64,000 nt of DNA, taken from contig CALQZS010000001.1 of NCBI GenBank assembly GCA_943349945.1, positions 130,803-194,802 on the forward strand. The letters are read 5' to 3'. Below the pieces are notes generated by a model. The model was not told the DNA's origin and did not search any database. It saw nothing but the letters and a program-made list of their open reading frames with translations. The DNA is from Candidatus Nomurabacteria bacterium (GTDB taxonomy: Bacteria > Patescibacteriota > Minisyncoccia > Phycocordibacterales > SBAW01). Positions 4,619 to 55,036 of the stretch are shown here, piece by piece (positions within the stretch are counted from its first letter, which is position 1; each line of letters begins with the position of its first letter). The position numbers and the translations under genes were made by a program.

Positions 4619-4655
4619 TTTGAGAAGTAAAAAGGGAGGGGTTGTTTGTGTTGTG

Positions 4656-5870
4656 CTAGATGCTGGTGGTGCTGCTGTAGATAGGGAGCAAGACTGCCGC
4701 CAACAAAAAGCCCACACCCACCGCAAGCGCCACAATAAGCACAGGTTCGATGAGCGACACCAAAGTGTCGACCGCTGCATTTACCTCGCGGTTATAGAAC
4801 TTGGCCATACGCTCCAAAATGTTGCCCAACTCGCCTGTTTCTTCACCGATCTGGAGCATCTGCACCATAATGGCTGGTATTTCGTCTGGATATTGCGCAA
4901 GCGTCTGCGACATAGGACTACCGGCCTTCACTCCTTCGAGCGCTTCGAGCAAAATGGTTTGGTAGACTGCGTTTTCTATAACTGACGAAGTGATTTCGAG
5001 TGAGCGTACTGCCGATATACCGGAAGACAACATCACATGCATGTTGTCTGCAAAGCGAGACAGGTAGAGTTTTTGGTAGAGTGTGCCCACGTACGGAATA
5101 GAGAGCTTTGCACGCGCCATACTAAGTCGTCCACGCGGCGTCTGGCTGTAGCGATACAAAAAGTATCCGCCGATAATAAGCGCCACGAACAAGAATATGC
5201 CATAGTCGGTCAAAAACGCACTAAAGCCAAGTATGACTTTGGTGTATACGGGCAACTCCTGCCCACTTTCCGACAAAATAGAACCTATTTTTGGAATAAC
5301 CACCGTAAGCATCAGCGTCATCACCGCAAAGAAAGTAAAGAGAATGAACGCCGGGTAGATGAGCGCATTGCGAGCCTTGGAAGTCAGCTCGTAGGAGCGG
5401 TCTATGTAGTCGGCCAAAAATTGGAAGGTCTGGTCGAGCTTGCCGGACTCCTCGCCTGCACGAACCATGTTGACATAAAAGTCAGAAAAAACTTTAGGGT
5501 GCTTTACCAGCGCTTTGGAGATGCTGTTACCCGCCTGCAAGTCGTCGCTTATTTCGGTAAGAACCGTGCGCAAGTAGGGCTTTTCTGCCTGCTCGGCCAA
5601 CAAACGGAAAATACGCAGTGCAGAAACTTGCGCCTCGAACAAGGTCGCCAACTGGCGAGAAAGGAGCACCACATCGCGGCCAGTTACGCCGCCAAAAAAT
5701 GGCAGCTGCACGGTCAAACCATGTAGTCCTTTTGGCGCATCGCTGGTGAGCGCCGTGATGGTAAATCCTTTGCGCTGCAGCGACTCAATAGCCGCGTCTT
5801 GTGTGGCAGCGTTTACTACACCGGCTTGTGCCTTTCCTGCTTGGTCGAGTGCTTCGTATTTAAATTCCAT
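4656..5870 (-). CDS. pilC: type IV pilus assembly platform protein PilC (GspF family)
   Basis: 404 aa with two GspF-type repeats and multiple TM segments. Adjacent to pilT/pilB. Confidence 0.85.
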   Translation of the reverse strand: MEFKYEALDQAGKAQAGVVNAATQDAAIESLQRKGFTITALTSDAPKGLHGLTVQLPFFGGVTGRDVVLLSRQLATLFEAQVSALRIFRLLAEQAEKPYLRTVLTEISDDLQAGNSISKALVKHPKVFSDFYVNMVRAGEESGKLDQTFQFLADYIDRSYELTSKARNALIYPAFILFTFFAVMTLMLTVVIPKIGSILSESGQELPVYTKVILGFSAFLTDYGIFLFVALIIGGYFLYRYSQTPRGRLSMARAKLSIPYVGTLYQKLYLSRFADNMHVMLSSGISAVRSLEITSSVIENAVYQTILLEALEGVKAGSPMSQTLAQYPDEIPAIMVQMLQIGEETGELGNILERMAKFYNREVNAAVDTLVSLIEPVLIVALAVGVGFLLAAVLLPIYSSTTSI

Positions 5871-5907: not shown

Positions 5908-6975
5908 TTATAACAGCCGCTCAAGGGTCTTTGGATTCCAACTAAGGTTGTATGCGCTCTCGACTGTTATCTCGCCTGCACGCACAAGTTCTGCAAGAGA
6001 GCGGTTCATGTCTATCATACCCTCTTCGGCACCGGTCTCTATCACCGTCTGGAGTTCGTGCGTGCGCTTTTCTCGGATAAGGTTGGCGACTGCGTTGTTG
6101 TTTATAAGCAGCTCGCACGCAGGCACCAGCCCGCCAGAAATGCGCGGCACCAAACGCTGCGAAAAGATACCTGCCAACGACCCCGCCAGCTGGATACGAA
6201 TTTGGTCTTGTTGCCCCGCGGGGAACGAGTCGATGATGCGGTCGATGGTTTGTGCTGCGTTGTTGGTGTGGAGTGTTGAAAACACCAAGTGCCCCGTCTC
6301 GGCGGCAGTTACGGCTGTGGCCATGGTCTCGGGCGTGCGCATCTCACCTATCATCAACACGTTTGCATCCTGACGAAACACCGAGCGCAGCGCCGAGTCA
6401 AAGTCGGCCGTGTCCACACGAACCTCGCGCTGGTCTATGAGTGACTTTTTATTTTCGAACAAGTATTCAATAGGGTCTTCTATGGTGACAATATGCTCGG
6501 TACGTTCGGTGTTTATCTTCTCGAGCAATGCAGCAAGTGTCGTAGTTTTACCCATACCCACCGGCCCCACCACCAAAAAGAACCCCTGTTTGCGTGACGC
6601 AAACGTCTCCAAAATTGGAGGCAACCCAAGCTCGCTGAGCGAGCGTATTACCTTGGGGATAAGACGCAGCGCCACGGCGACGTGCCCGCGCTCGACAAAC
6701 CCGTTGCCACGGAAGCGCGTTTTTTCTTGGTGCGAGTAGGAAAAGTCTATTTCTTGTGTCTCTAAAAAGCGTTTTTTGTGCTCGGGGCTCAACATCTCCG
6801 ATAACAGGCCGATAATTTCGTCGTTCGTTAAGACCGACTCAGACAAAATAGGTGTCAGCGCACCCGACACACGTATGATGGGTTGTGCACCCACAGACAA
6901 GTGCAAGTCCGAAGCACCTTGCGCGACCAACAAATCAACCAACTCTGCTACTTTCTTTTTAAAATCAGTTATCAT
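5908..6975 (-). CDS. pilT: twitching-motility retraction ATPase PilT
   Basis: Walker A GPVGMGKTTT, Asp box, His box (FSTLHTNNAAQTIDRI). 355 aa, lacking the N-terminal domain of PilB. Confidence 0.9.
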   Translation of the reverse strand: MITDFKKKVAELVDLLVAQGASDLHLSVGAQPIIRVSGALTPILSESVLTNDEIIGLLSEMLSPEHKKRFLETQEIDFSYSHQEKTRFRGNGFVERGHVAVALRLIPKVIRSLSELGLPPILETFASRKQGFFLVVGPVGMGKTTTLAALLEKINTERTEHIVTIEDPIEYLFENKKSLIDQREVRVDTADFDSALRSVFRQDANVLMIGEMRTPETMATAVTAAETGHLVFSTLHTNNAAQTIDRIIDSFPAGQQDQIRIQLAGSLAGIFSQRLVPRISGGLVPACELLINNNAVANLIREKRTHELQTVIETGAEEGMIDMNRSLAELVRAGEITVESAYNLSWNPKTLERLL

Positions 6976-22625: not shown

Positions 22626-22715
22626 TGCGGAGAGAGCGAGATTCGAACTCGCGGGCCCAATTAAGGGCCGACAGTTTAGTAAACTGTTGATTTAAACCAC
22701 TCATCCATCTCTCCA
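22626..22715 (-). tRNA. type II (long variable arm) tRNA, Ser-like identity (G73), apparent anticodon ACU
   Basis: Minus-sense fold: GGAGAGA UG GAU gagugguuuaa AUC A ACAGU uuACUaa ACUGU cGGCCCuuaauuGGGCCc GCGAG uucgaau CUCGC UCUCUCC G. All stems are canonical. The 7-nt anticodon loop UUACUAA gives A34-C35-U36. Confidence 0.65.
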
Positions 22716-22926: not shown

Positions 22927-23011
22927 GGAGACGTGTCAGAGTGGTCGAATGTGCCTCCTTGCTAAGGAGGTAGGGCGCAAGCCCTCGTGGGTTCGAATCC
23001 CACCGTCTCCG
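22927..23011 (+). tRNA. tRNA-Ser(GCU)
   Basis: GGAGACG...CCUCC uuGCUaa GGAGG, long variable arm GGGCgcaaGCCC, T-arm GUGGG uucgaau CCCAC, acceptor CGUCUCC, discriminator G. Confidence 0.9.
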
Positions 23012-28475: not shown

Positions 28476-29246
28476 CTATAGTTCGCGCTTACCCAGCAAA
28501 AGCGACGCGCCAAACAAAAGCACCCCCGCGTAGAGCACCGCGTAGGCAACAGTGGTGAGCATGTGCGCCGTGGTGGGCACCCCGCCGTACAGCACCAACT
28601 CGCGCACGTTAAACTTTTCGAGGTTGGGCAATATGTAGTAGAGGCTCGTCAGCACCGGCTGCAGCGCGGCAGGCGCCGACAGCGCCGGCAAGAGCGACAA
28701 AGAATGCCCGATGTATAAACAGACAATAGTGTAGACCGTGGACGCAAGCGGCCGCGCAAAGGTAGAAAAAAATATAGCCAACGCGATGATGAGCCCTAGC
28801 TCCAACAATTCGTACCCCACGGCAAACATAGCCCCCGTATCTACCCCGCCGCCGCCGTACCACACCAGCCCCAGGTATACCGCGAGCATCCCCGCCACCG
28901 ACACCGCCACGCTGGCAAGCAGGCCACTAAACTTGCCCACCACCATTTGCCAACGGCTCACCGGCTTGGACAAAATAAAGTATGCGGTTTTTCTTTCGAG
29001 CTCTTTAAACACCAAGGACGTCGCCAAAAAGATGGTGATGAGCAAGCCAAAGAGATACATCCCCGCCAACCCCAAACTCCGCACTATGTGCAAGTTTTCG
29101 CCCAGCGATATCGAACCCAAAAACAGCGTAAAGGTGCTAAAGATAAACGCAAAAATCCAGATGCCGTACAGCACCTTGTCGCGCACATTTTCTATAAACG
29201 TGCTCTGCATCAATACAAACAGGGTATGTGCTATGCGGGATATCAT
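28476..29246 (-). CDS. ABC-2 type transporter permease
   Basis: Six predicted TM segments. Overlaps the upstream ATPase gene by 4 nt. Confidence 0.7.
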   Translation of the reverse strand: MISRIAHTLFVLMQSTFIENVRDKVLYGIWIFAFIFSTFTLFLGSISLGENLHIVRSLGLAGMYLFGLLITIFLATSLVFKELERKTAYFILSKPVSRWQMVVGKFSGLLASVAVSVAGMLAVYLGLVWYGGGGVDTGAMFAVGYELLELGLIIALAIFFSTFARPLASTVYTIVCLYIGHSLSLLPALSAPAALQPVLTSLYYILPNLEKFNVRELVLYGGVPTTAHMLTTVAYAVLYAGVLLFGASLLLGKREL

Positions 29247-31104: not shown

Positions 31105-31637
31105 GATTGTGCTTCTGGTTCCATGAGCGTACGGAGCTTTTTGAGCCCGCGGTGTATCCGCACCGATACCACATTTTCGCTCTCTTCTATCGACTCTGCA
31201 ATCTCTTTTGGACTAAAGCCCTCTATATAGCGCAGCGCCAACACCTCGCGGTATGGGTCGGCCAACTTGGCCAGCGCCGCGAGCGCGCGCTTGCCGTCGA
31301 AGCGGTCCATAGCAGCTTCGAGCGCGTTTGTCTCGTCGGCAGGTAAAAGGGACTCCACCGTCTCGCCGCCCTCGCCGCTTTCGACCATCTGTTCGAGCGA
31401 TGTGGTTTTGTGCTTGCGGTACTCGTCGACAATAAGGTTATGTAGCGTGCGGTAAAAGAAGGGACGGTAGTCGTGGATTTCTTCGCCGCGCGAGACATAG
31501 GCCCACGCACGCAGAAAAGTCTCTTGCGTCAAGTCGAGCGCCCGCTCCCTGTCGGAGAGCCTGAGTGTCGCATGCCGGAAAAGCTCGTCGGCATACCGCT
31601 CAAAGGCAGCAGTAAATTGTTTTTCTGTGTCTACCAT
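31101..31637 (-). CDS. ECF-type RNA polymerase sigma-70 factor
   Basis: Region 2 (FLRAWAYV...YRTLHNLIVDEYR) and region 4 HTH (LRYIEGFSPKEIAESIEESENVVSVRIHRGLKKL). Confidence 0.85.
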   Translation of the reverse strand: MVDTEKQFTAAFERYADELFRHATLRLSDRERALDLTQETFLRAWAYVSRGEEIHDYRPFFYRTLHNLIVDEYRKHKTTSLEQMVESGEGGETVESLLPADETNALEAAMDRFDGKRALAALAKLADPYREVLALRYIEGFSPKEIAESIEESENVVSVRIHRGLKKLRTLMEPEAQS

Positions 31638-31713
31638 ATATAGAGACGGATGAGAGCCTCTACTCTTTCATCGCCTACCTATTCTACCCTATACAACCCG
31701 TACACTAGACGCA

Positions 31714-31746
31714 AAAACACCACCCCTAAACAGGGTGGTGTTTTTA
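31714..31746 (-). terminator. intrinsic terminator (minus strand) ending the hammerhead-containing transcript
   Basis: Minus sense ACACCACCC uguuuag GGGUGGUGU followed by UUUUUG. Also works on plus (bidirectional). Confidence 0.65.
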
Positions 31747-31866
31747 AACATCCATAGGGCCACGAGCCATGCACAGTGGTTAGAGGAGAGAGTTTTTTGC
31801 TCCGTCTTGGCTAGTGCAATTTGGAGCTTCTCACACAGCGTGACTCATGACCCTATAGAGATTTTT

Positions 31867-31917
31867 ACCTTTTCGTCCTTTTGGACTCATCAGCCCGGGC
31901 ACACACCCGAGGAAAGT
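31867..31917 (-). ncRNA. hammerhead self-cleaving ribozyme motif, type III
   Basis: Minus sense: GACUUUC^CUCGGG-UGUGUG-CCCGGG-CUGAUGA-GUCC-AAAA-GGAC-GAAA-AGGUA. All invariant core nucleotides are present (CUGAUGA, GAAA, U16.1-H17 = UC). Stem I is 6 bp with a 6-nt loop, stem II is 4 bp with an AAAA loop and the G10.1-C11.1 closing pair, and stem III is 5 bp and open. Predicted cleavage lies between plus coordinates 31912 and 31911. Confidence 0.7.
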
Positions 31918-32009
31918 CGGACGACACGCAGCGTTGTTGCGCCGTGTCGCCCGTTAGCCCCGGACTAGCCGGGGCGGCCGGGGATGATTTTGCGGTAATC
32001 ATCCTGTTG

Positions 32010-32402
32010 TTAGGTGCCGCATATAGCGGCCACGAACTGCTTCGCAAGTTCTTGGCGATTCAGTTCTGACGCCCGATCGTCGCTGGGGACGCACGGGGAC
32101 TTAGTTAACCCGTACGCCAAAGAAGCGTAACTCACCGCCATCGACGGATTGTAACCGCCCCAAAAGCGAGCGGCCTCAGCCGCTGCCAGAACGGCGAACT
32201 TCTTCGCCGCCTGTGAGTCCTCAATGGACACATCGAATGGTCGGTCAGCGTGACCGAAAACCCCAAAAAGGGCCCTTTCGATTTCATAGAGTACCCGCTC
32301 TGAAATCTCTCCACCCACTATCATCCATTGGACGACCTGTGGGTTGGGCATCCACAGCCCAGCGACAACAAGCGCTGCCATTCGCGCATGTACTATTGTC
32401 AT
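32010..32402 (-). CDS. hypothetical protein (130 aa)
   Basis: RBS GGAGAG 4 nt before ATG. Preceded by a ~365-nt structured leader and consensus promoter, followed by the hammerhead ribozyme. No family recognised. Confidence 0.45.
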   Translation of the reverse strand: MTIVHARMAALVVAGLWMPNPQVVQWMIVGGEISERVLYEIERALFGVFGHADRPFDVSIEDSQAAKKFAVLAAAEAARFWGGYNPSMAVSYASLAYGLTKSPCVPSDDRASELNRQELAKQFVAAICGT

Positions 32403-32770
32403 TTTACTCTCCGTTTTTTTGAGCGTTGGATTTTGCCAACGCTCGGGTTTAGAACATCAGGGTGCAATTTCTTGCGATCCCTCTTGCCGCACCGAGCATT
32501 AGAGTGCATCCATCTGCACTAGGCAGACAGGCTCATGACTCGGTAAGGCGAAGAGGAACAACAAAGGTGATCTTTCGATCGTTTGTTATTTCCCGACGCC
32601 AATATTTGGGTCGGGATCCCGACTTTGCGGGATCTATTCGCTATTCTTTTGTCAAAGAATGTCTCTCTTTCGAGAGAAGTCGGATGGCAAAATGGGCCAA
32701 ATATAAAAGATGTGCCTTTTGCCGTCCGGCTTCTCCCTACGACTCTCTCCTCTAAGAGGTAATCGTTAAA
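32403..32770 (-). promoter_or_regulatory. long highly structured 5' leader (candidate riboswitch / regulatory RNA)
   Basis: About 365 nt between the predicted TSS and the ORF. Contains a ~19-bp helix (GAGAAGCCGGACGGCAAAA...UUUUGCCAUCCGACUUCUC), several GAAA-tetraloop hairpins (CUCUC GAAA GAGAG, GAUC GAAA GAUC), and palindromes (GUCGGGAUCCCGAC). Confidence 0.45.
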
Positions 32771-32776
32771 CCCATT

Positions 32777-32805
32777 ATACCCCCTTATTCCGAGTTTGTC
32801 AAGTA
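32777..32805 (-). promoter_or_regulatory. consensus sigma70-type promoter (TTGACA-17-TATAAT) on minus strand
   Basis: Minus sense TTGACA (32805..32800), 17-nt spacer, TATAAT (32782..32777). Confidence 0.55.
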
Positions 32806-32889
32806 GTTCGAGGCGCTCATAACCAAACAGGCAAAATAGCCCTATACATAAGGCTTTTTAGGCACTCTAGAGCCTGCCTTGCTTTGTAG

Positions 32890-34056
32890 CTACCGCACAG
32901 CCTTTGCAACCGCCTCCATGACCCCTTTGTCGAAGGGCCCAGGGATTATTTTGTCTGCCGTAGGCTTTTTGACCAGCGCAGCCAAGTTGTGGGCGGCAGC
33001 CAACTTCATCTTGTCGGTGATTTTGGTGACCTTGTGGTCGAGCGCTCCGCGGAAGATGCCGGGGAATGCTAGCGAATTGTTGATTTGGTTTGGGAAGTCG
33101 CTCCGCCCTGTGGCCACCACAGCTGCCCCTCCCCGCATAGCATCGCCCGGCATAATTTCGGGAGTCGGGTTGGCAAGCCCAAAAACAATCGCACGCGGTG
33201 CCATCATTTGCACGTGCCGCGCCTGCATCAGCCCCGGGCCAGAAACCCCCACCACAGCGTCCGCCCCCGCAAGCGCATCTTCTAAACCTCCCTGTATCTT
33301 GCGTGGGTTTGTGTGTTTGGCCAGCGCCTGCTTGTGCGGCTCGTTACTATTCACCGTGATGATTCCTTTACTGTCGAGGACGATTACATCTTTAACACCC
33401 GCCAAGAGCAGCAGCTTGGTTACGGCGGTGCCTGCAGCACCCGCGCCAGCCACTACTACTTTTAATTTCTTTAGATCTTTCTTTACCACCTTTGCTGCGT
33501 TAATGAGCGCTGCGAGCACCACAATTGCTGTGCCGTGCTGGTCGTCGTGCATCACGGGGATGTTGAGCGCCGCCTTTACCCTGTCTTCTATCTCAAAACA
33601 ATTGGGCGCAGTAAAGTCTTCGAGGTTGATGCCACCGAATGCGGGCGCAATGCGCACAATAGTCTCGACAATCTCGTCGACGTTTTGTGTATCGAGCACA
33701 ATCGGGAATGCGTCTACGTCTGCAAACGACTTAAACAGCGCAGCCTTACCCTCCATAACCGGCAGCGCACCATAGGGCCCGATGTTGCCCAACCCCAACA
33801 CTGCCGAGCCGTCGGAGATAACCGCGACCATGCGTTTTTTTATTGTGTATTCTTTTGCGAGCGTCTCTTGTTTTTTTGTTGGGTGGAGTTTGCCTTTAGT
33901 GCCCGCGACAAGTGTCGACACCGCCGCCACGCCCGGCGTGTATACCAAACTCAAGTCGTCTCTGTTTGTAACGGGCGCTGCTGCCTGGATGCGAATTTTA
34001 CCCCCGAGTTTTTTGTGTAATGCAATTGCCTTTGCTGCGGTGTCGTTTTTTGCCAT
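32890..34056 (-). CDS. NAD(P)-dependent malic enzyme
   Basis: Start at MAKNDTAAKAIALH (internal Met of the longer ORF). VYTPGVAAV..., GLGNIGPYGALPVMEGKAALFK, VVAGAGAAGTAV Rossmann motif. 389 aa. Confidence 0.85.
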   Translation of the reverse strand: MAKNDTAAKAIALHKKLGGKIRIQAAAPVTNRDDLSLVYTPGVAAVSTLVAGTKGKLHPTKKQETLAKEYTIKKRMVAVISDGSAVLGLGNIGPYGALPVMEGKAALFKSFADVDAFPIVLDTQNVDEIVETIVRIAPAFGGINLEDFTAPNCFEIEDRVKAALNIPVMHDDQHGTAIVVLAALINAAKVVKKDLKKLKVVVAGAGAAGTAVTKLLLLAGVKDVIVLDSKGIITVNSNEPHKQALAKHTNPRKIQGGLEDALAGADAVVGVSGPGLMQARHVQMMAPRAIVFGLANPTPEIMPGDAMRGGAAVVATGRSDFPNQINNSLAFPGIFRGALDHKVTKITDKMKLAAAHNLAALVKKPTADKIIPGPFDKGVMEAVAKAVR

Positions 34057-34116
34057 GCGGTTGGTCAGATAAATGGATATGCCTTTATTGTAGCAAGCTT
34101 TTGGTATGATTGTTGC

Positions 34117-36378
34117 ATGGAGCTTGCCGACCTGCTTACCCAACACTTCCGCCTGAGCGAGCCACACAGGCAAGCGCTGCACAAGCTCGGCATACACAGC
34201 ATTGGCGACCTTGTGCACCACTTCCCCTCTCGCTATGAGGCGCCAGGCAATGAGTCGGCCATTGCGGGGCTCACTCTTGGCATGGACGCAGCCGTTACCG
34301 GGGTACTAGAAAAATTGGAGACAAAAAAGTCGTGGAAGCGGCGCATCCCCGTGTCGGAAGGATATTTGCGTGACAGCAGCGGACACATCAAGCTGATGTG
34401 GTTTAACCAGCCATACATAGCCAAGATGTATATGGACGGCACGACGGTGCGTGCCACGGGCAAAGTGTCGGGCTCGGCCGGAAAACTCTACCTCGCCAAC
34501 CCGCAGCTGGAAAAAGTTTCTGCTACAGAAGACGAATTGTTTACGGAGCAGCAGCATCCTGAAGAAAATGGTCTGGCCTCGCTTGCCCGACGTCCCGGCT
34601 CGCCGGGACTTGCGGGCGACGAGGAGAACCGAGGACCTTTTCGGAAGGATGCTGCTGCGAAGTTGTTCGCCGTCTATCCCGAAAGCCGCGGGGTTACATC
34701 GCTGTGGCTACGGCACGCAATACAAAAAATACTCTCCCACTCTGTACAAGGGTTACCCTTGGTAGAGCAGGTGCAAGACCCCATCCCGCCCGAGATTTTA
34801 AAACGCTACAACCTCCCCACCCTTAAAGCCGCTTTGGTGTGGATCCACACCCCCGAAAAACAAAAAGACGCCGACGCGGCGCGCAAGCGCTTTGCCTTTG
34901 AAGAAGTTTTTTTGATCCAGCTCGAGCGCAGGCAAGAGCGCATGCGCGCACTGCACGAGCAAAGCTTTGCGGTGGATGCACCGCCCCAGGCAATTGCCGA
35001 GTTTATGCAGACCTTCCCCTTTGCGGCAACGGGTGCGCAGCAGCGCGCGGTCGAACATATATTGACCGACATGCGCTCCGGCCAACCTATGTCGCGCCTG
35101 CTCGAGGGCGACGTAGGCAGCGGCAAAACTGCAGTAGCCGCCACCGCCGCATACGCGGCGGTACGCACACGCCCCACAAACCAAAACTTCGGCACACTCC
35201 AAGTAGCCTACATGGCGCCCACCGAGATTTTGGCCAAGCAACATTTCGAGTCGTTTATAAAATATTTTGTCCCCTTCCCCATAAACATCGGACTCATCAC
35301 CGGCTCGGGCTGTTTTAAATTCCCCTCTAAAGCGAGGCGAGGCGAAGCCACCACCATCTCGCGCACGCAACTGCTCAAGTGGGTGGCGGGGGGCGAAATT
35401 CCAATTTTAATTGGCACGCATGCACTTATTGAAAAGGCAGTGCAGTTTAAACACCTGAGTCTGGTGGTGATAGACGAGCAGCATCGCTTTGGCACCAACC
35501 AGCGCAAAAAGCTTGCCCGCAAAAACGGCGACGCGCGGATCCCCCACCTTCTTTCTATGACCGCCACCCCAATACCCCGCACCTTGGCGCTGACCGCCTA
35601 CGGCGACCTAGACCTGACGCTACTCGACGAGATGCCCGCAGGCCGCAAACCAATTATTACGGAAATTGTAAAACCCACAGAGCGTTCGCGAGCGTACGCA
35701 AAAATGCACGAGCAGCTGGCGGAAGGTCGCCAAGCGTATGTGATTTGCCCGCGCATAGACGAACCAGACCCAGAAAAAGCATTCGCTCTTCAAGCCAAGT
35801 CTGTCACCGCCGAGGCCAAGCGACTTAAAAAAGAGGTCTTCCAACAATATGAACTTGCGATATTACACAGCAAGATGACCCCAAAAGAAAAAGACGAGGT
35901 TATGGCGCGCTTTGCCCGGCACGAGATAGACATCCTGGTGGCCACGTCTGTGGTCGAGGTGGGGGTCAACGTGCCCAACGCGACTATGATCTTTATCGAA
36001 GGTGCCGAGCGTTTTGGCCTAGCCCAGCTGCACCAGCTGCGCGGGCGCGTGGTACGCTCCAACCACCAGGCATACTGTTTTGTCTGCCCCGAAAGCCGCG
36101 GAGAACATACACTCGCAAGACTCAAAGCCTTGGTAACGGCAAAAAATGGGTTCGAGTTGGCCGAGCAGGACTTGATGCAGCGCGGCCCCGGCGAACTTTC
36201 GGGCCGCAAACAATGGGGCATCTCGGACATCGGCATGGAAGCGCTTAAAAATATAAAACTGGTAGAAGCGGCACGCACTGAAGCGCTCAACATAATAGAA
36301 ACAGATGCCGAGCTTGGGCACTACCCACTCCTTAAAGAGGCACTTGCCCTAAGGGCCAAGGCACTACATTTCGAGTGA
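34117..36378 (+). CDS. recG: ATP-dependent DNA helicase RecG
   Basis: 753 aa. Walker A GDVGSGKT, DEQHRFG (DEAH-type), C-terminal helicase motifs (QLHQLRGRVVR). Confidence 0.9.
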   Translation: MELADLLTQHFRLSEPHRQALHKLGIHSIGDLVHHFPSRYEAPGNESAIAGLTLGMDAAVTGVLEKLETKKSWKRRIPVSEGYLRDSSGHIKLMWFNQPYIAKMYMDGTTVRATGKVSGSAGKLYLANPQLEKVSATEDELFTEQQHPEENGLASLARRPGSPGLAGDEENRGPFRKDAAAKLFAVYPESRGVTSLWLRHAIQKILSHSVQGLPLVEQVQDPIPPEILKRYNLPTLKAALVWIHTPEKQKDADAARKRFAFEEVFLIQLERRQERMRALHEQSFAVDAPPQAIAEFMQTFPFAATGAQQRAVEHILTDMRSGQPMSRLLEGDVGSGKTAVAATAAYAAVRTRPTNQNFGTLQVAYMAPTEILAKQHFESFIKYFVPFPINIGLITGSGCFKFPSKARRGEATTISRTQLLKWVAGGEIPILIGTHALIEKAVQFKHLSLVVIDEQHRFGTNQRKKLARKNGDARIPHLLSMTATPIPRTLALTAYGDLDLTLLDEMPAGRKPIITEIVKPTERSRAYAKMHEQLAEGRQAYVICPRIDEPDPEKAFALQAKSVTAEAKRLKKEVFQQYELAILHSKMTPKEKDEVMARFARHEIDILVATSVVEVGVNVPNATMIFIEGAERFGLAQLHQLRGRVVRSNHQAYCFVCPESRGEHTLARLKALVTAKNGFELAEQDLMQRGPGELSGRKQWGISDIGMEALKNIKLVEAARTEALNIIETDAELGHYPLLKEALALRAKALHFE

Positions 36379-36531: not shown

Positions 36532-36603
36532 TGGGCGCGGCAGGGATTGAACCTGCGACCAGTCGTGTATAAGACGACCGCTCTACCACTGAGCTACGCG
36601 CCC
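36532..36603 (-). tRNA. tRNA-Ile(UAU)
   Basis: Minus sense GGGCGCG UA GCUC aguggua GAGC G GUCGU cuUAUac ACGAC uggUC GCAGG uucaauc CCUGC CGCGCCC A. Anticodon loop CUUAUAC gives UAU. Confidence 0.8.
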
Positions 36604-40777: not shown

Positions 40778-41239
40778 GTGAGCCTTATAGAAAGTAAAAA
40801 AGCCCGGCTAAACTATGACATCCTCGAGGAATTTGAGGCGGGGTTGGAATTGGTGGGTAGCGAGGTAAAGAGTGTCCGCGCCGGCCACGGCAAGCTCGAC
40901 GGTGCACATATTATTGTGCGCCCCACCGCGCGCGCAGGGGGCCTAGAGGCATACGTGGTGGGCATGTCTGTGCCTCCATACCAAGCCACCAACACCCCCG
41001 CCGACTACGAACCCGAGCGCACACGCAAACTCCTGCTGACTAAAAAAGAATTGCAAACGTTGGCCGGGTTTGAAAAGCAGAGCGGCTTGACAATAGTGCC
41101 ACTTTCGGTGTATAATAAAGGGAGAGTACTGAAGCTGCGTTTGGCGGTAGCCCGCGGCCGTAAGAAATACGACAAGCGCGCCGTCTTAAAGGAAAGAGAC
41201 ACCAAGCGCGACATACAAAGGCTAAAACGACAATTATGA
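40778..41239 (+). CDS. smpB: SsrA-binding protein SmpB
   Basis: ARLNYDILEEFEAGLELVGSEVKS..., basic C-terminal tail. Confidence 0.9.
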   Translation: MSLIESKKARLNYDILEEFEAGLELVGSEVKSVRAGHGKLDGAHIIVRPTARAGGLEAYVVGMSVPPYQATNTPADYEPERTRKLLLTKKELQTLAGFEKQSGLTIVPLSVYNKGRVLKLRLAVARGRKKYDKRAVLKERDTKRDIQRLKRQL

Positions 41240-41652: not shown

Positions 41653-42028
41653 GGGGATGCCAGGCCTAGACAATGAAGACGCCTGTTGAATGCGCGCAGT
41701 AGAAGTCTGGACCTTCTTAAAAATCCGGAAACAATAACTGCAAAAAACAGTGTTTCGCCGTATTTCGCGGCGAACGACTTCCAGTTCGCGTTCGCGCGAG
41801 CGTAAGTCGCATCTACCCTTCCTCTCTCTTGCGGGTTGGGATAGGTGTTATATAGCAAGAGTATAGTTGCAAGAGCCGCTCTGACTTGCATCCGAACATA
41901 AGAGCTGCAGGAAGTTATGATTTCGTTTGCTTTGCCCATAACAGCCTAAAGAAACAACAAGCGAACTACACTACGTAGAAGCTTCAGCAGCACTTCATTG
42001 CACGGCGGTTCAATTCCGCCCATCTCCA
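41653..42028 (+). ncRNA. ssrA: tmRNA (SsrA)
   Basis: 5' GGGGAUG pairs with 3' CAUCUCC (G3:U70 Ala identity, A73). T-arm GGCGG uucaauu CCGCC. Internal tag ORF GCG GCG AAC GAC UUC CAG UUC GCG UUC GCG CGA GCG UAA gives (A)ANDFQFAFARA*. Located directly downstream of smpB. Confidence 0.8.
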
Positions 42029-42040
42029 CATAAAAATAAA

Positions 42041-55008: not shown

Positions 55009-55036
55009 TTGACAAAGCTGTGCGTAATGCTATAAT
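55009..55036 (+). promoter_or_regulatory. consensus sigma70-type promoter TTGACA-16-TATAAT
   Basis: ttgaca aagctgtgcgtaatgc tataat, about 65 nt upstream of the RlpA-like ORF. Confidence 0.55.

Follow-up and report, generated by a model that had tools for sequence, protein, structure and literature searches.

What is the long, heavily structured RNA that lies between a consensus promoter and a small gene of no known family, and does it regulate that gene? This question is raised by a 1.25-kb unit in a 64,000-nucleotide stretch of DNA (hereafter the window) from a Candidatus Nomurabacteria bacterium. An earlier note on this DNA described a perfect promoter, a hairpin-dense leader and an orphan 130-aa ORF, and likened the leader to a riboswitch, another cis-regulatory RNA or an sRNA locus. 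CPR bacteria (Patescibacteria) have tiny genomes and, to our knowledge, very few described regulatory RNAs; our literature search turned up no study that connects CPR or Parcubacteria with hammerheads or structured ncRNAs. We compared the locus with related loci (designated by L numbers), all of them MAG and metagenome DNA. Coordinates are those of the window, and all features lie on its minus strand.

Promoter and leader RNA

The sigma-70 consensus promoter TTGACA-17-TATAAT is an exact 12/12 match at 32774..32802, 3 nt away from the position first given for it (32805-32777). Perfect consensus promoters occur three times in the 64-kb window against 0.03 expected, so this genome uses the consensus and the match is not due to chance. 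The promoter is kept in all leader-bearing loci, with a TATACT variant in L002 and L068, and transcription is predicted to start near 32767. Upstream, a terminator-like hairpin, AGCCTTATGTATAGGGCT followed by a U-run (32838..32855), is kept in L001, L004 and L002 and forms the left edge of the conserved island; it belongs to the upstream gene, a malic enzyme in the window and a RelB/ParE-like pair in some relatives.

Downstream of the promoter, the 373 nt from 32775 to 32403 fold at -149.4 kcal/mol, compared with -98.2 +/- 5.4 kcal/mol for dinucleotide shuffles (z = -9.44), and none of 100 shuffles folded as well, in agreement with the original description of an untranslated region dense in hairpins. 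The leader had been taken as about 365 nt long. After analyzing nhmmer, alignment and cmsearch results, we assigned about 295 nt (~32473..32767, ending in AAGAGGGAUCGCA) to a constant leader RNA, and the remaining 65-70 nt or so to the 5′ UTR of the ORF cassette. The block had also been called GC-rich, which did not hold, as the GC content of the leader is 46-49% compared with 54-61% in the flanking genes.

The leader begins with the P1 hairpin ACGAUUACCUCUUAGAGGAGAGAGUCGU (32739..32766), which is invariant in the genus; in the diverged leader copy of a second genus (L068), the 3′ arm has U in place of G and the 5′ arm correspondingly A in place of C, as read from the sequence. P2 (32672..32737), identified from fold and alignment, is a long irregular hairpin of ~24 bp with bulges and corresponds to the ~19-bp helix noticed earlier; its upper helix in L068 has a different sequence with the pairing kept (GUCGGC/GCCGAC). 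The P2′ hairpin CUCUC-GAAA-GAGAG (32663..32676), an example of the GAAA-tetraloop hairpins already described, becomes CUCCC-UUCU-GGGAG in L059, a compensatory change, and CUCUC-AGCGAC-GAGAG in L068. P2′ excludes the base of P2, and the two may therefore represent alternative pairings. The alignment further defines P3 (32643..32660) with the conserved motif CUUUGACAAAA, of which L068 keeps the motif and not the stem. An internal promoter at the conserved TTGACAAAA in P3 was rejected, as no -10 element was seen by eye at 16-18 nt in any lineage. The variable region P4 (32566..32632) occurs in a longer version in the window and L058 and as a shorter nested hairpin in other lineages; the reported palindrome GUCGGGAUCCCGAC (32623..32610) is indeed there, within the longer version. 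In the 3′ domain (32473..32565), helix P5 (CCUCUU-C-GCC/GGC-AAGAGG; CCUCGU/ACGAGG in L068) encloses a covarying helix and hairpin; compensatory pairs support this domain. A simple stability element would not need so elaborate a fold as these six helices, which are conserved in two genera; this speaks against a stability role.

Past GGGAUCGCA (32473), leaders diverge according to the ORF in first place, and the stretch at 32403..32472 comprises, according to the alignment, the lineage-variable leader end and the 5′ UTR of the first cassette. The Hc hairpin (32481..32460) straddles this boundary, with its first 9 nt inside the constant leader and the rest in the variable end. The UTR of the 130-aa cassette begins with UGAUGUUCUAAACC (32459) and contains the hairpin GAGCGUUGG...CCAACGCUC (32444..32421; one covarying pair, C-G to U-A), an A-run and the SD GGAGAG (32412..32407), which lies 4 nt before the AUG at 32402, just as the GGAGAG-n4-AUG of the earlier note implied. 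The sequence from 32459 onward also precedes 130-aa homologues that stand behind junction elements in L004, L057 and L062. In the minimum-energy fold, GGGUUUA at the very start of the RNA forms a long-range helix with UAAACCC in the cassette UTR; we dropped this helix because it is not conserved where other cassettes lead. A terminator scan found no convincing intrinsic terminator between the leader and the 3′ module, and its sole candidate within the leader was the P2′ hairpin, with a poor U-run.

Judged from its sequence, the leader region is a genuine conserved structured non-coding RNA behind a strong promoter, without an Rfam family. Leader identity is 86-94%, compared with 55-67% at 4-fold sites of the neighboring malic enzyme gene, and 96.3% of cells in the leader alignment are paired. 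Double changes were found at seven leader pairs, compared with 0-3 in slid controls, in a set of 7 distinct sequences from two genera in which most pairs never vary; L068 adds further compensatory changes in P5, P4 and upper P2. Coding on the other strand in homologs, which had been raised as a concern, found no support: no open frame is conserved on either strand, the longest frames shift frame and strand among four lineages, and leader indels are not multiples of 3. An antisense ORF of 97 aa, called by gene finders in two relatives, was set aside, as its frame is not conserved.

The failure to match any known RNA class by eye was borne out by covariance-model searches. With Rfam 15 run over the whole window, no match on 32403-32805 reached the gathering score, and at E <= 10 on 31400-33000 the leader received chance-level miRNA matches only (E > 3); the homologous L004 island, searched to E <= 10, gave the same negative result. 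Additionally, in nhmmer and cmsearch runs over ~0.7-0.77 Mb covering ~50 other Paceibacteria loci, neither the leader nor a junction element or 3′ module turned up again. Signs of a phage origin were likewise missing: none of 50,697 phage records matched the 1.25-kb block in blastn, and IMG/VR did not contain the exact patterns of leader or junction element. Two metagenome_contigs scans gave no match, which is weak evidence, since that collection lacks a JGI contig known to carry the pattern.

Orphan cassettes between constant RNA ends

The ORF behind the leader (32010..32402) was confirmed as an orphan. Pfam, PADLOC and PHROGs contained no family for it and gave nothing significant for nine other cassette ORFs, and a profile search of 1.84 billion representatives returned only in-clade relatives and one spurious repeat protein. 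Its codon positions 1+2 are more identical than position 3 in all comparisons, which indicates that it is coding and fast-evolving. An AlphaFold2 model of the protein is not confident (pLDDT 51).

The leader is not tied to this ORF. In six related Paceibacteria (CPR) lineages, the same leader precedes four different first ORFs; those found in relatives encode 116 aa, 142/149 aa or 174 aa, and also 43 aa, and all are orphans. The 130-aa ORF is one cassette of an array, and in other arrays its homologue comes fourth or fifth, behind a junction element instead of the leader. Thus, the view of a cis-regulatory RNA upstream of the 130-aa ORF stood as regards a conserved structured non-coding RNA, and fell as regards a dedicated link with this ORF.

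The whole unit is ordered as follows: promoter and leader, one to six orphan ORF cassettes, a hammerhead or junction element, a ~115-nt 3′ module and a terminator. The cassettes are promoterless, share one orientation and the promoter at the head, carry their own SDs and are separated by junction hairpin elements of ~60-110 nt. Cassette number and order vary between close relatives, and the array ends are constant. The junction element has two conserved boxes, CCCUUUUAAGC and UUUAAAAGGG, and it is here that cassette-linked sequence has its breakpoints; most of each junction hairpin travels with the downstream ORF, not the upstream one. The 3′ domain of the leader may be weakly related to these elements: the leader covariance model gave one weak match on a junction element (L004:2563-2664; 20 bits, E = 0.08).

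A type III hammerhead, reported earlier at the end of the block, is present at 31865..31919 and is conserved in relatives, with a score of 31.0 bits (E = 3e-4 for a 1.6-kb search) that is below the RF00008 gathering score of 48.5. Its sequence is GACUUUC/C...CUGAUGA-GUCC-AAAA-GGAC-GAAA-AGGU, in which the slash marks the predicted cleavage between 31912 and 31911, after the triplet UUC. The catalytic core of RF00008 comprises C3-A9 (CUGAUGA), G12-A14 (GAA), A15.1-U16.1 and H17. This core is complete here and invariant in 6 aligned sequences, and the motif CUGAUGA...GAAA occurs once in the window against 0.01 expected. Of the three stems, I and II are loop-closed. Stem II reads GUCC/GGAC in the island compared with GCUC/GAGC in the related hammerheads of L028 and L047, and stems I and III differ in sequence with pairing kept, so that all three helices covary as read by eye; L001, L002 and L061 also conserve the hammerhead, each with a hairpin inserted in stem II. 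Cleavage would leave an mRNA that ends in the stable hairpin just upstream, GGGCGACACG...CGUGUCGUCC (31919..31952), which we read from the sequence. In sister lineages, the position before the 3′ module is occupied by a junction hairpin that does not look like a ribozyme.

Behind the hammerhead follows the conserved structured 3′ module (31750..31864), closed by the 15-bp helix CUAUAGGGUCAUGAG/CUCGUGGCCCUAUGG. Its internal hairpin exists in three unrelated sequences (the window type, L008 and L061) between invariant flanks. The description as an sRNA locus, once applied to the leader, fits this module better. The unit ends in a conserved terminator hairpin that is bidirectional in form, AAAAACACCACCC-UGUUUA-GGGGUGGUGUUUUU (31713..31745), which we read from the sequence; the terminator scan did not list it, probably because its A-run pairs with its U-run. 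Weak Rfam matches at this place (mir-2822, RNAI and Phe_leader) reflect the hairpin.

The unit is a lineage-specific insertion in a narrow group of ultra-small (CPR) bacteria. The island lies between the malic-enzyme and ECF-sigma genes in one genus-level Paceibacteria (CPR) clade, and the sister lineage L066 has the empty site, with 53 nt between malic enzyme and sigma. A second genus carries a diverged version. A toxin-antitoxin pair adjoins the array in some lineages.

Complementarity of the two ends and readings of the leader

The two constant ends of the unit share a perfect 14-nt complementarity between a leader box within P1, UUAGAGGAGAGAGU (32742..32755), and a box with A-rich flanks in the 3′ module, ACUCUCUCCUCUAA (31780..31793). 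As unconstrained RNAduplex of leader against 3′ module returned a meaningless full-length pairing, we assessed the complementarity by counting exact complements and by shuffling. The 14-nt complement joins only these two places in the window, and no complement longer than 11 nt appeared in 1000 shuffles. It has the same arrangement in every lineage of the genus with both ends, 6 in all. The 3′ box has a mean predicted unpaired probability of 0.71, compared with 0.32 for the whole module, and the predicted duplex of the boxes (-22.8 kcal/mol) is stronger than P1 (-9.8 kcal/mol). Both boxes are invariant within the genus, and the pairing is therefore without covariation support. In L068, the leader box is changed, no 3′ module is recognizable and only the 8-mer CCUCUAAC is found in the terminator loop. 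Therefore, the pairing cannot be ancestral or the only function of the leader.

We tentatively propose, with a probability of roughly 0.4, that the leader is a generic structured 5′ UTR of the cassette-array unit, which works with the 3′ module through 5′-3′ pairing. Whatever cassette follows, the leader would set the stability or translation of a transcript that is predicted to read through to the 3′ module. In this genus, the P1 arm would base-pair with the single-stranded box of the 3′ module. This could happen in cis, so that the transcript is closed in the manner of the hbs and icaR mRNAs, or alternatively in trans, after self-cleavage by the hammerhead had released the 3′ module and terminator as a small RNA. 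By opening P1, the pairing would release the 5′ arm of this hairpin, which is pyrimidine-rich and anti-SD-like. Since the leader box lies ~340 nt upstream of the first SD, any effect on translation would have to be indirect.

The leader could instead be a sensor RNA, that is, a riboswitch or protein-binding leader responding to a small molecule, an ion or a protein. CU-rich and GA-rich tracts would then switch their pairing between the base of P2 and P2′, P1 and P5, and would expose or hide a generic anti-SD that acts on the SD of whichever cassette leads. Such a sensor would suit the conservation of a complex fold across two genera, the mutually exclusive P2 and P2′, which are both compatible with the observed substitutions, the several CCUCUU/CUUCUCUC and GAGAG/AAGAGG tracts, and a P3 motif that is conserved though its stem is not. 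However, no Rfam aptamer matched even at E <= 10, nothing links the leader to a ligand, the genes that follow are orphans that vary and share no pathway, no terminator-type expression platform is recognizable, the minimum-energy fold leaves the SD of the first ORF unpaired, and the L070 homologue of one cassette gene has a plain promoter and a short UTR. We consider a sensor unlikely, and the riboswitch likeness proposed earlier was not supported. The leader might also be an independent non-coding RNA, released from the primary transcript by a cut at its junction-element-like 3′ domain and acting elsewhere, with the cassettes merely sharing its promoter; junction elements and hammerhead would likewise cut the array into monocistronic pieces. 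The leader has one of only three consensus promoters in 64 kb, is as conserved as codon positions 1+2 of housekeeping genes and resembles a junction element in its 3′ domain, and the positional alternation of hammerhead and junction element suggests that the junctions are RNA-processing sites. We nevertheless think an independent RNA very improbable, because there is no terminator or known processing motif at the leader end, the junction elements look like simple long hairpins in which few unpaired bases are conserved and match no known ribozyme family, and the distribution is very narrow, with no other match in 770 kb of related CPR loci.

A role at the DNA level would account for the boxes in another way. 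They might be inverted repeats for a site-specific invertase that turns the array ON or OFF, or the leader 3′ domain and junction hairpins might be attI/attC-like recombination sites of an integron-like cassette system, served by a recombinase encoded elsewhere. The boxes form a perfect 14-bp inverted repeat with sharp edges that brackets the cassettes. Cassette number and order differ between close relatives with ends constant, the breakpoints lie in the two junction-element boxes, and promoterless co-oriented cassettes stand behind one promoter in an island that is itself an insertion. However, we found no recombinase among the neighboring genes checked (RecG, malic enzyme, ECF sigma factor, a DUF5667 protein and an ABC transporter), the junction elements do not have the RYYYAAC/GTTRRRY signature of attC, and the boxes have the same orientation in all nine contigs that carry both. 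Moreover, the right-hand box lies inside a structured RNA domain and is spanned by its closing helix, and the change of the left box in L068 is compensated inside the P1 hairpin, which indicates a constraint at the RNA level. We hold a DNA-level role to be highly unlikely.

Significance and comparison with known systems

The locus would add to the CPR a structured RNA family of ~300 nt, a second conserved structured RNA behind a hammerhead and a repeated junction element. The genes of the unit that holds them change from species to species, whereas its RNA ends are fixed. If the proposed 5′-3′ pairing is true, end-to-end mRNA control of the hbs/icaR type would be extended to a modular platform for any inserted gene, and a bacterial hammerhead would gain a concrete job, the release of a 3′ regulatory RNA. 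If the junction elements are processing or recombination sites, the unit would be a compact model of how orphan genes are acquired and expressed in ultra-small symbionts. Owing to its consensus promoter and size of 1.25 kb, it is directly testable in E. coli or in vitro.

Like the orphan leaders and riboswitch candidates obtained from comparative genomics, the leader is a long and conserved 5′ UTR of several helices, which shows some covariation and has no coding potential. In contrast to these, it is associated with no coherent gene function, has no recognizable expression platform and has an extremely narrow range (7 distinct sequences, two genera). The hammerhead shares the full catalytic core and three stems with RF00008, and differs in a score below the gathering threshold.

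The array as a whole recalls integrons and CALINs, which are attC clusters without an integrase. It has a promoter at the head, promoterless and mostly orphan co-oriented ORFs, a structured repeat at each junction, variable content and order and, in some lineages, a toxin-antitoxin pair alongside. However, the R″/R′ cores of integron attC sites read RYYYAAC...GTTRRRY, and neither strand of the junction-element boxes has an AAC...GTT core, so that we rejected an attC identity. No integron integrase was found among the neighboring genes checked, and most of the junction hairpin travels with the downstream ORF, unlike in integrons. Integrons are also not known to have a ribozyme, a structured leader RNA of this length or a structured 3′ end that stays constant. 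We speculate, while rating this as quite unlikely, that the CPR possess an integrase-independent, RNA-organized cassette system, in which orphan genes are held between a pairing leader and a 3′ RNA with interchangeable junctions, and which would both express and reshuffle accessory genes. One of these junctions is the hammerhead; on this reading, the other, the ~60-110-nt hairpin, would represent either a novel element for RNA processing, perhaps one that cleaves itself, or a novel type of recombination site.

In mRNAs of the hok/sok type, the outermost 5′ and 3′ sequences pair with each other: fold-back pairing of 5′ tac with 3′ fbi locks the message for a small protein in a single state, which lasts until the 3′ part is lost. 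Here, by contrast, neither an antisense RNA gene nor a toxin family is recognizable, several unrelated ORFs are involved, and removal of the 3′ part would be by a ribozyme, not an exonuclease.

The closest parallels to the proposed pairing are two mRNAs whose own 5′ leader and 3′ UTR are perfectly complementary over a short stretch. In the B. subtilis hbs mRNA, the interaction of the 5′ and 3′ UTRs spans 14 bp (PMC5737220), the same length as here. In S. aureus icaR, the 3′-UTR pairs with the SD region through a pyrimidine-rich, anti-SD-like partner (PMC3868564), and the effects reported for the two concern RNase access and translation (PMC5737220, PMC3868564). The present case, recognized from sequence alone, differs from both in that the leader box is distinct from the SD of the first ORF and that the partners are constant modules bracketing variable genes. 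Furthermore, the 3′ partner lies in its own 115-nt folded domain behind a hammerhead, and for this reason it may act in trans.

Promoter, leader and surrounding genes

Downstream of the malic-enzyme gene, which ends at 32890 (-), and of a terminator-like hairpin (32855..32838, -), we located a sigma-70 consensus promoter, TTGACA-17-TATAAT, matching at 12 of 12 positions (32802..32774, -). The earlier note was right about the perfect consensus, and its coordinates were off by 3 nt. The window contains three such promoters against 0.03 expected; therefore, this genome does use promoters of this type, the present one included. The two further TTGACA-N16-18-TATAAT promoters lie at 41087-41116 (+), approximately 540 nt 5′ of the tmRNA gene, and at 55009-55036 (+). 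The promoter is followed, all on the minus strand, by the structured leader, the 130-aa ORF (32402..32010, AUG at 32402), a stable hairpin, a type III hammerhead (31919..31865), a block of approximately 115 nt (the 3′ module) and a terminator hairpin (31745..31713), downstream of which is an ECF sigma/DUF5667 operon. The malic-enzyme ORF itself (32890-34221, -) can be read back to a GTG at 34221, giving 443 aa and an overlap with the start of the divergent RecG gene (34117, +); in relatives the gene is called with 387-388 aa, which puts the true start probably near 34053.

From the -10 element down to the start codon at 32402, 373 nt in all, the RNA has a folding energy of -149.4 kcal/mol, compared with -98.2 ± 5.4 in shuffles (z = -9.4). 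The long helix, GAAA-loop hairpins, palindrome GUCGGGAUCCCGAC and GGAGAG-4-AUG noticed earlier were all found, but the region is not GC-rich as claimed (46-49% GC, below its flanks). Rfam returned no family for the leader, whether at the gathering score or with E <= 10, in agreement with the earlier note, which could not match it to a familiar RNA class, and the 130-aa ORF is an orphan as described, with no family in Pfam, PADLOC or PHROGs. The possibility that homologs encode a protein on the other strand had also been raised; indels among lineages have lengths not divisible by three, and neither strand keeps a reading frame across lineages, which leaves the leader non-coding. Gathering-level Rfam matches in the window comprise only the tmRNA (41653-42031, +; 101.9 bits) and three tRNA genes (36532-36603, -; 22628-22714, -; 22927-23011, +).

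RNAalifold predicted the following minus-strand helices in the leader: P1 (32766..32739), the long hairpin P2 (32737..32672), a small hairpin P2′ that competes with the base of P2 (32676..32663), P3 (32660..32643), P4 in a variable region, and a 3′ domain in which P5 surrounds a further helix and a hairpin. The 5′ arm of P1, GAUUACCUCUUA (32762-32751, -), resembles the anti-SD tail at the 3′ end of 16S rRNA; the window itself has no rRNA. Across six sequences, 96.3% of cells are paired, and seven pairs changed on both sides, compared with 0-3 when partners were slid by 1-3 columns. Covariation support for the fold is genuine but modest because most pairs are invariant, and the statistics are weak since the sequences are few and related. 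P2′ reads CUCCC-UUCU-GGGAG in L059 instead of CUCUC-GAAA-GAGAG. Additionally, a diverged leader (nhmmer, 40 bits; covariance model, 76 bits) is present in L068 (JGI 3300072492), a locus from another genus, with unchanged element order and extra compensatory changes, several of its pairings being judged by eye. Its P5 is CCUCGU/ACGAGG, compared with CCUCUU/AAGAGG elsewhere; the P4 inner hairpin and P2 upper helix differ in sequence yet pair; one P1 arm changes from G to U and the other, matching, from C to A; P2′ is retained, as is the motif CUUUGACAAAA, whose stem is lost.

A constant leader in a mosaic cassette array

Judged by its sigma-factor gene, the window belongs to Paceibacteria (CPR/Patescibacteria); the closest GTDB genome is labelled 'Ca. 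Nomurabacteria'. Three proteins led us to syntenic loci: the 130-aa protein, a second cassette protein and the sigma factor. Their housekeeping proteins are 92-95% identical to those of the window, and four-fold-site identity is merely 55-67% in the malic-enzyme gene and 58-75% in the sigma gene, so the loci represent distinct species of one genus. Using nhmmer and alignments, we found the promoter and approximately 295 nt of leader in six lineages (the window, L001, L002, L004, L058 and L059), with the 5′ half 86-94% identical versus 55-67% at adjoining neutral sites. The first ORF behind it belongs to the 130-aa family in the window, L001 and L059, and is a 116-aa membrane-like protein in L004, a 142/149-aa protein in L002 and a 174-aa variant of the 142-aa protein in L058. 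The leader is therefore a constant module, not one dedicated to the 130-aa ORF. A homologue of this ORF occurs further down the array in L004, L002, L057 and L058, and the final ~65 nt of the originally proposed leader, containing UGAUGUUCUAAACC, a covarying hairpin, an A-run and the SD, accompany it at every location. One homologue of the 142-aa cassette protein, 54% identical and located in L070 (880-1004), has a plain TTGACA-type promoter, a ~60-nt UTR and no leader; cassette genes thus also occur outside the array.

Between cassettes sit repeated junction elements of approximately 60-110 nt, consisting of a variable hairpin, box A CCCUUUUAAGC, a variable inner hairpin, box B (G)AAUUUAAAAGGG (also written UUUAAAAGGG) and a last hairpin. 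More than 12 distinct copies came from L002 (3550-3661, 3866-3945), L004 (2563-2664, 3863-3946, 4408-4485, 5044-5145), L057 (829-914, 1346-1403, 1875-1985), L058, L059 (7689-7774), L062 and L068 (8331-8433, 8497-8560), and none of the elements matched Rfam. The two boxes pair with each other and covary, reading CCCUCUU/AAGAGGG in L002 and L068. Sequence tied to the upstream or downstream cassette switches partner at one box or the other, which indicates that the arrays are mosaics produced by recombination at the boxes; the inner hairpins are exchanged without regard to either flank. The leader 3′ domain closes with AAGAGGG plus a hairpin, as junction elements do, and gave one weak covariance-model match on a junction element.

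A sister lineage with RecG/malic/sigma synteny has 53 nt at the island site; therefore, the entire unit is an insertion. Between malic enzyme and island, a RelB/ParE-like toxin-antitoxin pair is present in L001 (3032-3563), L004 (1239-1770) and L058 (198-729) and missing from the window and L059. Downstream of the L002 island (4640-5300) there is no ECF sigma/anti-sigma pair, and other sequence replaces the terminator region before an ABC transporter. The leader, junction element and 3′ module were absent from ~50 other Paceibacteria loci, and from the phage/viral and metagenome collections scanned, an absence that is only partly informative.

The hammerhead and the 3′ module

The site before the 3′ module is occupied by a hammerhead in the window, L001, L002 and L061, and by a junction element in L004, L057, L058, L059 and L062. 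The window copy scores 31 bits against an Rfam gathering score of 48.5 and is, judging from its sequence, an ordinary, low-scoring type III hammerhead. The core is invariant, a hairpin is inserted in stem II of L001, L002 and L061, and stem pairings were judged by eye. Two other Paceibacteria have similar hammerheads with covarying stems and the same loop 1 (L047, ~5945-6010, +; L028, ~6410-6340, -; loop 1 UGUGUG/UGUAUG, stem II GCUC-AAAA-GAGC), each within a short interval separating two ORFs of one strand. In CPR bacteria, hammerheads between genes may be a recurring feature. CUGANGA...CGAAA strings within coding regions at 28652, 39497 and 20724 (all -) were judged chance matches to a loose pattern; the first, which is also conserved in L006 and L007, lies in an ABC-transporter gene. 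The 3′ module (31864..31750, -) is a conserved folded domain with a 15-bp closing helix, an internal hairpin of three unrelated sequences among lineages, and no match in Rfam 15.

Putative pairing between the leader and the 3′ module

The segment UUAGAGGAGAGAGU (32755..32742), comprising the P1 loop and 3′ arm, exactly complements ACUCUCUCCUCUAA (31793..31780) in the 3′ module. This 14-mer occurs at just these two places in 64 kb, and its inverted arrangement is identical in every locus holding both ends. In 1000 shuffles of the 3′ module, the longest complement was <=11 nt. The predicted duplex has -22.8 kcal/mol, compared with -9.8 for P1, and the 3′ box, located between A-runs, is predicted to be mostly unpaired. 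We tentatively propose, with a probability of about 0.4, that the leader is a generic structured 5′ UTR serving any cassettes in the array and, in this genus, coupled to the 3′ module through base pairing, acting either in cis or in trans. Cutting by the hammerhead at 31912|31911 would give an ORF mRNA ending in the stable hairpin and an RNA of ~200 nt containing the ribozyme body, 3′ module and terminator. Three points count against pairing as the whole story: as both boxes are invariant, the pairing lacks covariation support; L068 has the leader without the 3′ module, retaining just CCUCUAAC in a terminator loop; and so elaborate a fold, kept in both genera, points to a further specific partner for the leader.

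The elaborate fold shared by two genera would also suit a ligand or protein sensor working via the competing CU/GA tracts. We consider such a sensor rather unlikely, given that we found no known aptamer, no coherent regulon and no convincing terminator, and that the SD is predicted to be free. It is still less probable that the leader is a stand-alone noncoding RNA processed at its junction-like 3′ domain: hammerhead and junction elements are positional alternates, but the leader end carries no processing motif. A role at the DNA level, as an invertible segment between the 14-bp repeats or as attI/attC-like sites, seems equally improbable. Cassette turnover and sharp repeat edges speak for it; however, there is no recombinase nearby, the attC core is absent, orientation is uniform in 9 contigs and the P1 compensation is at the RNA level.

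Overall, the architecture, as we read it, draws on known kinds: one-promoter cassette arrays, 5′/3′-UTR pairing, 3′-derived small RNAs and intergenic hammerheads. Our literature search did not find this combination described, and Rfam 15 had no match for the leader, junction element or 3′ module. The architecture therefore appears to be a new combination. This view draws on two genera with 7 distinct leader sequences between them, and every sequence used is from a MAG or metagenome contig. The proposed pairing resembles the 14-bp 5′/3′-UTR interaction of Bacillus subtilis hbs mRNA, which modulates how RNase Y cleaves within the 5′ UTR (PMC5737220), and that of Staphylococcus aureus icaR, in which the 3′ UTR pairs with the SD region, blocking translation initiation and creating an RNase III substrate (PMC3868564).
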